A DNA stretch of 64,000 bases from Longimicrobiales bacterium (GTDB lineage Bacteria; Gemmatimonadota; Gemmatimonadetes; Longimicrobiales; Gaopeijiaceae), in the NCBI GenBank assembly GCA_965202985.1, contig CBDBCF010000001.1, positions 64,001 to 128,000 on the forward strand. The letters run 5' to 3'. Shown piece after piece: positions 21,601 to 26,734 of this stretch. The position numbers and the translations under genes are program-made. The first letter of the stretch is position 1, and each line of letters starts with the position of its first letter. The notes below the pieces were generated by a model. It made no database searches and was not told where the DNA came from. It was given only the letters and a program-made list of their open reading frames with translations.

Positions 21601-22310
21601 CGCCGTTCGGCCGGTCGCGCCCGCCCCCCGCCCGCGTCGCTTTGGCCGGGGCGTTGCTGGCGATCGCCGGGGCCTTGGCGGTGACGACGGCCGCGGGCCA
21701 CCGCCCCCTTCCCGTCGCGACGTTCGAGTTCGGAACCGTCCGCTCCTTCCAAGGGCTCGTGACGGCGGACCCGTACCCGTCCCTGCTGGTTCGCCGCGGC
21801 ACCGTCGCGTCGCGCTACCTGCTCGTGGGACCGGGCAAGTCCGGCGCCGACGCGCTGGTGGCCGCCGCGGTCGGCGGAGCCGCGAGGCTGCGGGGCTCGC
21901 TGGCGTTTCGCGACGGCCAGGCTGCGATTCAGGTCGAACCGGGGTCGGTGGTCCCGCTGGACGAGCCGGCGCCGAGCGCGGACCCGCCGGAGGACCTGGG
22001 GTTCTTCGACCTGGAAGGGGAGATCGTCGGCGCCAAGTGCCACTTCGGCGTCATGAACCCGGGGTCGGGGATCGTCCACCGGGCGTGTGCTCGGCTGTGC
22101 ATTCGCGGCGGCGTTCCTCCGCTCCTGGCCGTTCGACTGGAGGACGGGCGCACCGAGGGCCTCTTGCTGACGGGTCCGCAGGGCGAAGCCGTCGGCGAGG
22201 CGATCGGGGAGCTGGTGGGCGTACCCGTGGGCGCCCGCGGTCGCTTGATCCGCAAAGGTCCCACCACCTTCGTCCGAGTCGATCCCCGCGAGATGCGGAG
22301 GTTGCGTTGA
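21597..22310 (+). CDS. Membrane-anchored protein with a Cys/His motif (KCHFGVMNPG...HRACARLCIRGG)
   Basis: GTGA overlap; N-terminal TM; two beta-rich halves; C...HxxCxxxC cluster. Confidence 0.7.
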   Translation: MTPFGRSRPPPARVALAGALLAIAGALAVTTAAGHRPLPVATFEFGTVRSFQGLVTADPYPSLLVRRGTVASRYLLVGPGKSGADALVAAAVGGAARLRGSLAFRDGQAAIQVEPGSVVPLDEPAPSADPPEDLGFFDLEGEIVGAKCHFGVMNPGSGIVHRACARLCIRGGVPPLLAVRLEDGRTEGLLLTGPQGEAVGEAIGELVGVPVGARGRLIRKGPTTFVRVDPREMRRLR

Positions 22311-24071: not shown

Positions 24072-26734
24072 TGAACAAACGTTTCCGCTGGCCCCGCAAG
24101 GCCGTCGTCCTTCTCGCCTACCTCGTGCTTCTGGGCGCGTCGCATGTCGTCCGGGCCTTCCGCTCGCCCCCCGCTCCCGCGCCGGACCAGAAGGTGCAGC
24201 ATGTGGAGGGCGCCCCCCCGCCGCCCCGAGGACCCGTCGCCATCGCCTACCGGGAGTGGGCGCCCGACGTCCCCTCGAATGGCGCCGGCGCACCGTCCGC
24301 CGGCGCCGAGGAACCTGCCGGCCACCCGTTGCCCGTGCTGCTGCTCCACGGAAGCCCGGGCAGCGGGTCGTCGTTCCGGCGTTTGGCCCCCGGATTCGGC
24401 GCGCACCGTCGCACGCTGGCGCCGGACCTGCCCGGATTCGGCGCTTCCACGGCCCGAGTTCCCGACTACTCGATCCGCGCCCACGCGGCGATGGCGCTCC
24501 AGCTCCTGGACTCGCTGCGAGTGGGACGGGTCCACGTGGTGGGATTCTCGCTGGGCGGGGGCGTGGCGCTGGAGATGCACCGCACCCGTCCAGACCGGCT
24601 GGCGTCGATCACCCTGCTGTCTGCGACGGGCGTCCAGGAGCACGAACTCCTGGGAGACTACCACCTGAACCGCGCGCTGCACGGCTTGCAGCTGTTCGCG
24701 TTTTGGGTCGTGGGCGAGCTGGTCCCCCACTTCGGCCTGGCCGACGGCGCCTTCCTGGGTCGAGCCTACGCCCGGAACTTCTACGACACCGACCAGCGAC
24801 CCTTGCGCACGGTCCTGCAGGAGTACGCCGGCCCCATGCTGGTGGTTCACGGGCGCCGGGACCCGCTCGTGCCGGTGGCGGCAGCGATCGAGCACCACCG
24901 CATCGTGCCCCAGGCCGAGCTCGCGCTGCTGGACGGCGATCACTTCCTGACGTTCGCTCGCCCGGAGGCGGTCGCCCCCGTCGTCCTGGACTTCGTCGCC
25001 CGGGCGGAAGCGGGCCGGACCGCCGTCCGCCGCACCGCCCTGCCGGAGCGGATTCGCGCGGCGGCGGTCCCCTTCGACGCCGCAACCGTCCCGCCGGCCA
25101 CGGGCTTCGCTCTCTGGGTGACCCTCGTCCTGATCGCAGCCGCCACCCTGGTCTCGGAAGACTTGGCCTGCATCGGGACCGGGCTCCTGGTGGTCCGCGG
25201 CGCTCTGCCCTGGCTTCCGGGCGCGGCGGCCTGCATGGCGGGGATCTTCGCGGGCGACCTGCTGCTGTACGCTGCGGGGCGACTCGTGGGGCGGCCCGTC
25301 GCGAGGGTCGCACCCGTCCGGTGGCTCGTGGGCTCCGACGACCTGGAACGCGCCTGTCGCTGGTTCGCCCGGCGAAGCGCAGCCCTGGTCCTGTGGGGCC
25401 GGTTCGTGCCGGGCACCCGCCTTCCGACGTACGTGGCGGCCGGCGTGGTGCGCCTTCCCTTCCCCGTCTTCGCGCTCTGGGCCCTGATCGCCGCCGCCGC
25501 GTGGACGCCCCTGCTGGTCGGCGCCACCACGCTCTTCGGCCAAGCGACCACCGCCTGGACCGGCGTCGAGCCGGAGCGCATCCTTCCCTGGCTGGCAGTT
25601 CTCGGCCTCGCCGTCCTGGTGGGCCTTCGCGTCGCGTTGCCCCTGGCCACGGCCGCGGGACGCCGACGGTTCGAGCGTCGGTGGGACCGCCTGCGCCGGT
25701 GGGAGTTTTGGCCCCCCTGGCTCTTCTACCTGCCGGTGGCGGCGTGGTTCTGCTGCGTGGCCCTCCGCTACCGCTCGCTGACGCTCTTCGCGGCGGCCAA
25801 CCCGGGAATCGAGCCCTTCGGCGGATTGGTCGGCGAATCCAAGTTCGGCATCCTCTCGGCCCTGGAACGCGGTCGGGTCGCGTCCGGGGCCGCCGCCGAC
25901 CGGGTCGCAAAGACTCGACTTCTGTGCCCCGCCCAGCTCGAACCCGAACGACTCCACGCCGCCGCGCTGGAGGCGGTCGCCCATGTGGGCGGGTTCCCCG
26001 TCGTCGTGAAGCCCGACGTGGGCGAGCGGGGCACGGGCGTTTCCGTGGTTCGGGACGCCGAAGGGCTAGCGAACCGGCTGGCCGACGCCAAGCACCCGCT
26101 GATCGTGCAAGAGTACGTGCCCGGCCGCGAGCTGGGGGTCTTCTACCACCGCATGCCCGGCTGGGAGCGCGGGCGAATCTTCGGAATCACCGAAAAGCGC
26201 CAACCCGTGGTCGTGGGCGACAGCCGCCGTTCCGTTGCCCGCCTGATCTTCGCGGACCGTCGGCTGCGGCACCAAGCCAAGGTGTTCGCCCGCCAGCTGG
26301 GGACGGACATGCACCGAGTCCCGGCCAAGGGCGAGCAGGTTGTCCTGCAGGAGCTGGGCAACCACTGCCTGGGCGCCGAGTTCCGCGACGGAGGGCGCAT
26401 GGAGACGCCCGCCCTGGCTCGGGCCGTGGAGGATCTGAGCCGCGGGGTCGAGGGCTTCTACTTCGGTCGCTACGACCTTCGGGGCGCGTCGTTCGGCGAC
26501 ATTCAGGCCGGGCACTTCAAGGTCGTCGAGCTGAACGGCGTCTCGTCCGAGGCCACAAACGTCTACGACCCCCGCAACTCTCTCCTCTCGGCCTACGGCA
26601 ACTTGTTCCGCCAATGGTCCCTGGCGTTTCGCACCGGCGCCGCCAACCGAACTCGCGGCGCGAAGCCGCCGGGCCTCTCGGCGGTCGCCCGAGTGCTCGT
26701 CCGGCATGCGAGGCGTCGCGTCAGTTGTTACTGA
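24071..26734 (+). CDS. Fusion of alpha/beta hydrolase, DedA/VTT membrane domain and ATP-grasp ligase
   Basis: GTG overlaps upstream TAG; HGSPG/GFSLGG/GRRDPLV/GDHF triad; SEDLAC...GDLLLY...RFVPGTRLPTYVAAG; WEFWP, KPDVGERGTGV, QEYVPG, GRYDLR, VELNG. Confidence 0.85.
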   Translation: MNKRFRWPRKAVVLLAYLVLLGASHVVRAFRSPPAPAPDQKVQHVEGAPPPPRGPVAIAYREWAPDVPSNGAGAPSAGAEEPAGHPLPVLLLHGSPGSGSSFRRLAPGFGAHRRTLAPDLPGFGASTARVPDYSIRAHAAMALQLLDSLRVGRVHVVGFSLGGGVALEMHRTRPDRLASITLLSATGVQEHELLGDYHLNRALHGLQLFAFWVVGELVPHFGLADGAFLGRAYARNFYDTDQRPLRTVLQEYAGPMLVVHGRRDPLVPVAAAIEHHRIVPQAELALLDGDHFLTFARPEAVAPVVLDFVARAEAGRTAVRRTALPERIRAAAVPFDAATVPPATGFALWVTLVLIAAATLVSEDLACIGTGLLVVRGALPWLPGAAACMAGIFAGDLLLYAAGRLVGRPVARVAPVRWLVGSDDLERACRWFARRSAALVLWGRFVPGTRLPTYVAAGVVRLPFPVFALWALIAAAAWTPLLVGATTLFGQATTAWTGVEPERILPWLAVLGLAVLVGLRVALPLATAAGRRRFERRWDRLRRWEFWPPWLFYLPVAAWFCCVALRYRSLTLFAAANPGIEPFGGLVGESKFGILSALERGRVASGAAADRVAKTRLLCPAQLEPERLHAAALEAVAHVGGFPVVVKPDVGERGTGVSVVRDAEGLANRLADAKHPLIVQEYVPGRELGVFYHRMPGWERGRIFGITEKRQPVVVGDSRRSVARLIFADRRLRHQAKVFARQLGTDMHRVPAKGEQVVLQELGNHCLGAEFRDGGRMETPALARAVEDLSRGVEGFYFGRYDLRGASFGDIQAGHFKVVELNGVSSEATNVYDPRNSLLSAYGNLFRQWSLAFRTGAANRTRGAKPPGLSAVARVLVRHARRRVSCY

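Follow-up and report, generated by a model that had tools for sequence, protein, structure and literature searches.

A putative operon for a modified amino-acid membrane lipid in a Longimicrobiales bacterium: OlsB- and OlsA-like acyltransferase genes coupled to a hydrolase-DedA-ATP-grasp fusion gene

Introduction

Aminolipids substitute for phospholipids under phosphate stress and shape the properties of the cell envelope. The stretch of DNA analysed here, hereafter the window, comprises 64,000 nucleotides of contig CBDBCF010000001.1 from a Longimicrobiales bacterium of the Gemmatimonadota, whose genome assembly amounts to 3.86 Mb in two contigs and is 92% complete. Between positions 22307 and 26734 of its + strand lie three coupled, co-directional genes that encode an OlsB-like acyltransferase, an OlsA-like acyltransferase and a protein of 887 amino acids (aa) in which an alpha/beta-hydrolase, a DedA/VTT domain and an ATP-grasp domain are fused. 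The locus raises the question of what such a fusion protein does beside a pair of aminolipid acyltransferases. An earlier note on this DNA had located the three overlapping genes correctly, and had proposed that the third one extends the free carboxyl of an acyl-amino acid with a second amino acid or an amine and then flips and remodels the lipid. We asked whether the fusion gene is tied to the acyltransferase pair in other genomes, what its domains are, and which reaction they would most plausibly carry out. Taken as a whole, the region is best explained as one operon devoted to a modified amino-acid membrane lipid.

The fusion gene is linked to olsBA in several phyla

Of 8000 candidates scored in a protein search with the fusion, 1386 matched at E 0.001 or better. 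The top 120 are 46-96% identical to the fusion, one of them (P0042) being itself fused to an acyltransferase, and the closest relatives are labelled Gemmatimonadota or Longimicrobiales by the source databases. A scan of one genome per species gave at least 593 matching stretches, with at least 516 encoding a relative. Neighbourhoods were counted in the best 80 of these at least 516 loci, which carry the labels Gemmatimonadota, Acidobacteriota, Planctomycetota and others; a locus was taken as assessable if its sequence reached 3.3 kb or more beyond the 5' end of the fusion, which left 68 and excluded the 12 with shorter flanks.

OlsB and OlsA genes lie co-directionally and immediately 5' of the fusion in 58 of the 68 assessable loci; related genomes are not independent of each other, and all such figures here are counts rather than statistics. 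Four loci have OlsB without OlsA (L025, L041, L046 and L072), one has OlsA without OlsB (L062), and five have neither gene and show unrelated neighbours in that place (L029, L033, L056, L074 and L079). Both genes are visible in 5 of the 12 short-flank loci. The five genomes with neither gene at the locus all have an OlsB-like match elsewhere, four of them at E 1e-80 or better with 51-53% identity. The match in the fifth is weaker (35% identity) and falls within a 627-aa frame that may encode an OlsF-type protein.

Co-occurrence gives the same picture. Among 151 Gemmatimonadota genomes the ligase domain was found in 16 and an OlsB-like protein in 20, with no genome having the ligase alone. OlsB thus accompanies the ligase in every one of the 16; in 15 of these genomes it precedes the ligase on a shared contig and strand, at a distance of 3.2-4.5 kb. 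The four genomes with OlsB and no ligase all belong to one genus. In addition, some gene calls are read-through or fused forms: P0042 reads acyltransferase-hydrolase-VTT-ligase, and P0232 reads TANGO2-hydrolase-VTT-ligase. The earlier note would have had its proposal refuted if the fusion were seldom beside olsBA in other genomes; the counts clearly show the opposite, and the linkage is not due to chance. The pattern is clear across several phylum labels.

The window operon comprises six coupled genes

Coupling in the window extends further upstream than the three genes. The coupled operon consists of six genes at 20003-26734, all on the + strand and with a G+C content of 0.70-0.75. The location given earlier for the acyltransferase and fusion genes stands, and the operon start moves from 22307 to 20003. 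The first gene (20003-20527, TTG start), which was recognized by tblastn with open reading frames (ORFs) of the related loci L002 and L003, encodes a small protein that has a hydrophobic segment at its N-terminus; the stop of this gene overlaps the ATG start of the second gene as ATGA. The second gene (20524-21600) encodes a membrane redox protein with a ferric-reductase-type transmembrane domain and a Rieske [2Fe-2S] domain. Its stop overlaps GTG 21597 of the third gene as GTGA. This third gene, which we call Up (21597-22310), encodes 237 aa with an N-terminal hydrophobic segment and a Cys/His motif, and its stop overlaps TTG 22307 of the OlsB-like gene as TTGA.

The OlsB-like gene (22307-23260) ends with TGA 23258-23260. 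Its start is uncertain: TTG 22307 gives an N-terminal stretch of about 60 aa that is of low complexity and poorly conserved, and conservation among relatives begins at about 22490. The overlap with the OlsA-like gene (23235-24071) is 26 nucleotides if GTG 23235 is the start of the latter. The OlsA-like stop codon, TAG 24069-24071, shares one base with GTG 24071, which is most likely the start of the fusion gene. A start at 24068 was rejected, the codon there being GTA, which is not a start codon; residue numbers of the fusion are nevertheless counted from position 24068 throughout.

The two acyltransferases are OlsB-like and OlsA-like

The OlsB-like protein matches PF13444 (Acetyltransf_5) at E 3e-28, with 99 bits against a cut-off of 22.4, and its top NCBIfam matches are two OlsB equivalogs at 126.6 and 117.6 bits, which have cut-offs of 320 and 350. 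The counterparts that lie upstream of the fusion in relatives are 45-82% identical to it. The OlsA-like protein matches PF01553 at E 4.1e-24, and the OlsA equivalogs, which have a cut-off of 300, match it at 140.1 and 136 bits. Its translation contains NHLSYLD and FPEATS, which we take to be the HX4D and FPEGT-type motifs of PlsC acyltransferases. The earlier assignment of the two genes to the OlsB and OlsA types therefore holds for the families and the PlsC motifs, but the scores stay far below the equivalog cut-offs.

The C-terminal domain is predicted to be an ATP-grasp carboxylate-amine ligase

The last part of the fusion (25688-26734) begins with a hydrophobic helix containing WEFWPPW and continues into the domain that was identified by AlphaFold2 modelling and fold search as a ligase. 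No Pfam family exceeds its gathering score in this region; PF02655 matches below threshold, at 17 bits against 23.2, and some relatives reach PF08443 (RimK). Modelled alone, residues 541-888 gave a mean predicted local distance difference test (pLDDT) of 92.0 and a predicted template modelling (pTM) score of 0.90. A Foldseek search with this domain gave 437 matches at E 0.001 or better, led by cyanophycin synthetases 1 and 2 (E about 1e-10) and followed by the GshF bifunctional glutathione synthetases and then D-Ala-D-Ala ligases.

Structural alignment with VIA-align placed the domain closest to the CphA1 G domain (Z 16.8-18.9, 266-272 residues aligned), followed by LysX/ArgX (15.8-15.9), GshF (15.6), RimK (15.4), carbamoyl-phosphate synthetase (15.2) and D-Ala-D-Ala ligases (about 14), with Z values of 13.4-18.9 to the 50 ATP-grasp entries listed. 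The best sequence match in the Protein Data Bank is likewise a cyanophycin synthase (E 2.4e-4), and it includes the GD..S..LI segment. Look-alikes in the ESM Atlas, which we regard as leads only, are clusters that are unnamed or called 'D-alanine--D-alanine ligase family', mostly from Bacteroidota and Pseudomonadota.

Ten positions of the domain are invariant in 55 full-length sequences (K648, R654, Q681, E688, K710, H766, R801, D803, E821 and N823), and they are kept as well in stand-alone and DedA-fused forms (35 sequences of mixed architecture). By analogy to D-Ala-D-Ala ligase, we take K648 to be the ATP-binding Lys and E821/N823 to be the Mg-binding Glu-x-Asn, with R801/D803 before it. 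The hydrophobic helix at the start of the domain is conserved in all three architectures. From its model and these residues the C-terminal domain is predicted with confidence to be a complete ATP-grasp enzyme with its catalytic positions intact; the fold search settles the ATP-grasp call of the earlier note in spite of the sub-threshold Pfam score. The CphA1 G domain, LysX, GshF and RimK phosphorylate the carboxylate of a peptide, a protein tail or an amino acid, to which the amine of an amino acid is then added.

A serine hydrolase and a DedA domain precede the ligase

The N-terminal part of the fusion (24071-25057) consists of a membrane anchor at residues 13-31 and an alpha/beta-hydrolase domain at residues 32-330 or so, which matches PF00561 at E 3.8e-28 with 99 bits. 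In all 55 full-length relatives that were aligned, an HGSPG motif, Ser161 (in GFSLGG), Asp265 and His292 are unchanged; assigned by their positions, the last three would form a Ser-Asp-His triad in the canonical order. In Foldseek the domain resembles esterases, perhydrolases, lactonases and C-C hydrolases, with a target-normalised template modelling score of about 0.7 to esterases, and these fold matches point to a serine hydrolase, no finer.

The middle part (25058-25687) holds the DedA/VTT domain, two further helices and an Arg-rich loop. The domain matches PF09335 (VTT) at E 1e-13, with 52.3 bits against a cut-off of 33.9, and the UptA model matches the fusion weakly, at 41 bits against 250. 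Its invariant positions in the 55 relatives are E364, D365, G396, D397, R445, P448, G449 and R451, of which E364, D365, D397, R445 and R451 presumably correspond to the essential residues of YqjA.

By hydropathy and charge count, five Lys/Arg precede the N-terminal anchor, the DedA region has loops with charges of +4 and +3, and the Arg-rich loop, with 8 Lys/Arg, stands before the ligase. From this distribution we infer that the hydrolase probably faces the periplasm and that the N-terminus, the Arg-rich loop and the ligase are probably cytoplasmic. The AlphaFold2 model of the whole fusion has a pLDDT of 87.7 and a pTM of 0.62.

The ligase family extends to cultured Proteobacteria

To what extent does the ligase occur apart from the fusion? 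Compared with 1.84 billion representative sequences, the domain gave 2697 matches at E 0.001 or better and 1038 clusters at E 1e-30 or better. Relatives are annotated at source as 'hypothetical protein', 'VTT domain-containing protein' or 'alpha/beta fold hydrolase'. A Pfam scan of architectures, covering 20 of the 150 matches listed, found a VTT domain before the ligase in 9 of 9 proteins of 524-600 aa and no VTT or hydrolase domain in 6 of 6 proteins of 346-384 aa. Among the others P0223 has hydrolase and VTT domains, P0232 has TANGO2, hydrolase and VTT domains, P0253 and P0174 combine VTT with a weak RimK-type ATP-grasp match, and P0156 has the hydrolase with no VTT match. Judged by domain content, the core of the family is a membrane-anchored ligase, usually with DedA, and the hydrolase is an optional N-terminal addition.

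A tblastn search of plasmid and secondary-replicon records with the ligase domain found 29 records in each of which 80% or more of the domain is matched at 31-40% identity, from Paracoccus (8), Komagataeibacter (6), Azospirillum (5), Salinivibrio (4), Vibrio (4), Variovorax (1) and Photobacterium (1). On plasmid 1 of Paracoccus denitrificans PD1222 (L098, 7920-10611) the ligase, an alpha/beta-hydrolase and a VTT protein are encoded by separate neighbouring genes. The stand-alone ligase there is 39% identical over 340 residues (E 2e-55). The hydrolase gene, which comes after it, encodes a protein 30% identical to the hydrolase domain over 215 residues (E 3e-15), and the VTT-domain gene adjoins the hydrolase gene on the opposite strand, having weak similarity (E 0.002) and being assigned to VTT by Pfam. 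This split form makes PD1222 a genetically tractable test system. An ornithine-containing lipid of Paracoccus denitrificans is reported in the title of a 1982 paper that stands in the reference list of PMC11631085.

The Azospirillum form is a DedA-ligase of 590 aa. Plasmids of Komagataeibacter (Acetobacteraceae) carry a stand-alone ligase that is about 37% identical across 93% of the domain (E 2e-44 to 2e-45) and whose neighbours are a methyltransferase gene and a gene for an iron-containing redox enzyme, not ols genes. Other cultured carriers are 'Acidobacteria bacterium Mor1' (P0358) and Chloracidobacterium.

Proposed function and alternatives

We consider that there is an even chance that the ATP-grasp domain amidates the free carboxylate of an aminolipid in the cytoplasm, that the DedA domain moves the lipid, and that the outward-facing hydrolase trims it. 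According to this scheme the OlsB-like and OlsA-like enzymes would, going by their family membership, build an acyloxyacyl amino-acid lipid. The cytoplasmic ATP-grasp domain would then activate the alpha-carboxylate of this lipid as an acyl phosphate. Reaction with the amine of an amino-sulfonate or a free amino acid would follow, and the head group would thereby be extended to a dipeptide or cerilipin type. The DedA domain would hold the lipid, move it to the outer leaflet, or do both, and the periplasmic Ser-Asp-His hydrolase would trim or turn over the head group or an acyl chain, for which the aminoacyl-phosphatidylglycerol hydrolases offer a parallel. More speculatively, the Rieske/ferric-reductase protein and its Cys/His partner Up may add redox tailoring. 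The nearest solved relatives of the ligase join an amine to a carboxylate, which fits an extension of the free carboxyl of the lipid. The carboxyl-extension idea of the earlier note is thus consistent with both the chemistry of these relatives and the olsBA linkage, but the extended product remains a prediction.

Several points weigh against this scheme. The carboxylate partner and the nucleophile are taken solely from the chemistry of the structural relatives. Because the equivalog scores are below cut-off, the two acyltransferases are termed OlsB-like and OlsA-like rather than curated equivalogs, and the amino acid of the head group is not assigned. The four Gemmatimonadota genomes that have OlsB without the ligase suggest that the ligase is dispensable for the basic lipid. 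Our literature searches turned up no modified aminolipid described for these phyla, and those aimed at ornithine lipid and polar lipids of Chloracidobacterium yielded nothing usable. In three proteobacterial plasmid records that were searched (plasmid records only) no OlsB-like gene was present. A hydrolase that simply reversed the ligase would make a futile cycle unless the cycle were regulatory. The predicted topology comes entirely from the positive-inside rule, and the packing of the domains is uncertain, given the full-length pTM. The PD1222 hydrolase has no obvious N-terminal anchor and is of limited identity, so an outward-facing hydrolase is perhaps not general.

The linkage to olsBA would apply just as well to an enzyme that works in the opposite sense, in which the ATP-grasp domain would activate a free amino acid and attach it to a side-chain amine of the head group (the delta-NH2 of ornithine or the epsilon-NH2 of lysine) to form an aminoacyl-aminolipid. 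Ornithine and lysine lipids have such a free amine, according to the accessible part of a 2026 aminolipid review (PMC12971839), and the D-Ala-D-Ala ligases, whose activated substrate is a free amino acid, are clear structural relatives at the Z of about 14 given above. We nevertheless regard side-chain aminoacylation as unlikely: the CphA1 G domain, LysX, GshF and RimK take the large partner as the carboxylate, and the reaction needs a basic head group, which the score of the OlsB-like protein below the equivalog cut-off leaves unestablished. A repair cycle like that of LplT/Aas would have the outward hydrolase deacylate an aminolipid or phospholipid, the DedA domain return the lyso-lipid to the inner leaflet, and the ATP-dependent domain help to re-ligate it. 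The domain order, with a hydrolase outside, a transporter in the membrane and an ATP enzyme inside, suits such a cycle, as do the resemblance of the hydrolase to esterases and the four loci in which OlsB has no OlsA beside it. Against this, the closest relatives of the ligase are amino-acid ligases and not fatty-acid-activating enzymes, the window operon has its OlsA, and the ligase is also found alone or with DedA only, without the hydrolase; we think such a cycle quite improbable.

Alternatively, the substrate of the fusion might be a soluble peptide, a polyprenyl-linked precursor or phosphatidylglycerol, the operon being shared through envelope regulation only. The DedA family includes polyprenyl-phosphate transporters, in keeping with the weak UptA match, the proteobacterial members are not beside olsB on their replicon, and olsBA is not nearby in five of the 68 loci. 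The adjacency across phyla in the great majority of loci, the co-occurrence in 16 of 16 and in 5 of 5 genomes, and the read-through fusions with the acyltransferase all speak for an aminolipid, and we give a substrate of another kind only a small chance of being right. A further reading borrows the logic of D-Ala-D-Ala: the ATP-grasp domain would cap the lipid carboxylate with a sacrificial amino acid at the cost of ATP in the cytoplasm, the DedA domain would export the capped lipid to the outer leaflet, where ATP is lacking, and the hydrolase would attack the amide there, free the cap and transfer the carboxyl to an acceptor in the envelope (such as a protein, peptidoglycan or another lipid). 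Cap and transfer would account for a fusion of ligase and hydrolase without a futile cycle and, if true, would let membrane lipids be anchored or cross-linked covalently outside the cytoplasm by a novel route, but we judge it very unlikely.

Comparison with known systems

How does amidation of the lipid carboxylate, the function that we favour, compare with what has been described? The ornithine-lipid pathway of OlsB/OlsA, like the GluB/OlsA and GlsB/GlsA systems, shares with the window the adjacent, coupled PF13444 and PF01553 (HX4D) pair; the window pair differs in scoring below the equivalog cut-offs and in being joined to a third enzyme and a redox module. The G domain of CphA1/CphA2, LysX/ArgX, the GshF module and RimK share the ATP-grasp fold and the catalytic positions with the ligase. 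Their identity to it is about 15-20%, and the hydrophobic helix, the fusion to DedA and the presumed lipid substrate set the latter apart. Unlike a cyanophycin synthetase, the fusion has neither the N nor the M domain of CphA, and PRK14016 matches it at 29 bits against 877.

The MprF-type synthase/flippase together with a periplasmic aminoacyl-phosphatidylglycerol hydrolase, as in the LpiA/AcvB operon, follows the same logic of modifying inside, moving, and trimming outside, as far as the accessible parts of PMC8131360 and PMC13197417 describe it. The resemblance is one of analogy only, since there are no homologous domains, and the fusion has an ATP-grasp enzyme in the place of aminoacyl-tRNA and DedA in the place of the flippase, all in a single polypeptide.

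In cerilipin synthesis, taurine is transferred to the carboxyl of ornithine lipid in an ATP-dependent step for which the gene is unidentified, according to the accessible text of the 2026 review (PMC12971839). The shared reaction type is thus an ATP-dependent amide at the head-group carboxyl (PMC12971839, same portion), and the titles and abstract openings of the listed cerilipin papers since 2019 name no gene. The ligase family reaches the Acetobacteraceae through the Komagataeibacter plasmids, but the Komagataeibacter gene is not beside ols genes. By analogy, reactions such as the ATP-dependent transfer of taurine could be performed by an enzyme like the fusion ligase, which is a candidate only.

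Planctomycetes have OlsH/OlsI, a GH3 amido-synthetase and an alpha/beta-hydrolase O-acyltransferase (PMC12493201, accessible part). The same portion of that paper (PMC12493201) indicates that an enzyme of the alpha/beta-hydrolase fold can serve as an acyltransferase in aminolipid synthesis, and that amides are also formed there in an ATP-dependent manner. When the fusion hydrolase was compared with the two hydrolases that flank a planctomycete GH3 gene (L091), which are presumed OlsI relatives by context, only the nucleophile elbow aligned and there was no significant similarity.

The terms DedA, grasp, Gemmatimonad and Acidobacteri do not occur in the accessible text of the 2026 review (PMC12971839), and a literature search (supplements excluded) found no description of this module, in agreement with the statement of the earlier note that it knew of no characterised pathway with this layout. 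What is new here is a putative aminolipid pathway with a previously undescribed candidate tailoring enzyme, and the finding of cultured Proteobacteria as carriers (Paracoccus denitrificans with its split form, Komagataeibacter and Azospirillum). With at least 516 loci in species-representative genomes, the fusion family is a concrete and widespread candidate for a missing class of head-group-extending enzymes. If the proposed function is correct, a membrane-bound ATP-grasp enzyme acts on a lipid, and the DedA domain gains a defined client.

Redox genes and other accessory genes

The genes that accompany olsBA and the fusion vary between relatives. The upstream ORFs of L002 and L003 match the window at 19907-20365 with 47-50% identity in tblastn; counterparts of the 20003 gene were seen upstream in Longimicrobiales-type relatives only, and those of L002 and L003 match no Pfam family. 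The Rieske/ferric-reductase protein matches PF01794 at E 6.9e-10 and PF00355 at E 5.6e-16. No Pfam or NCBIfam family was matched by Up, in which a C-x14-C-x3-C motif plus a His is kept in 11 relatives. Up and the Rieske protein share one reading frame in L071, L077 and L081, and the two may form a membrane redox tailoring module.

In the 60 loci whose upstream flank reaches 5.5 kb or more, the Rieske/ferric-reductase gene and Up stand before OlsB in 32, a DinB_2-like gene is present in 30, and in 19 a DinB gene and a TANGO2-family gene lie between OlsA and the fusion. These DinB/TANGO2 insertions occur in Gemmatimonadales, Acidobacteriota and Planctomycetota relatives (for example L036 4725-5968 and L042 4486-5933), and the sharing of an operon gives a testable context for the bacterial TANGO2 and DinB proteins. 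The window operon has the redox pair but neither a DinB nor a TANGO2 gene, and a search of the 92%-complete genome that contains the window turned up no member of the TANGO2 family. All-against-all clustering of the flanking ORFs was noisy, owing to shadow ORFs in high-GC DNA, and added a single element: a small DoxX/MauE-like membrane gene that lies 3' of the fusion, in either orientation, in 16 of the 80 loci (for example L037 8639-9025, L036 9846-10334 and L032 9287-9709).

Surroundings of the operon

Convergent with the fusion gene, at 26721-29366 on the - strand, is a gene for a Wza/EpsE-like polysaccharide export protein of 881 aa with five SLBB repeats. The G+C content drops to 0.58-0.64 over about 26500-30500, around this gene. 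Upstream of the operon, 14395-19556 encodes an AMP-binding enzyme (the C-terminal half of a long ORF) and then a sodium:solute symporter, a pair that looks like acetate activation and uptake. Still further upstream, on the - strand at 11429-14203, is a protein of 924 aa with multihaem cytochrome c motifs and a long TPR region. No RNA run was among those that match positions 20500-26800 of the window; four runs of one study labelled sponge metagenome contain DNA near-identical to 20500-26800 (0.61-0.64 of the sampled words).

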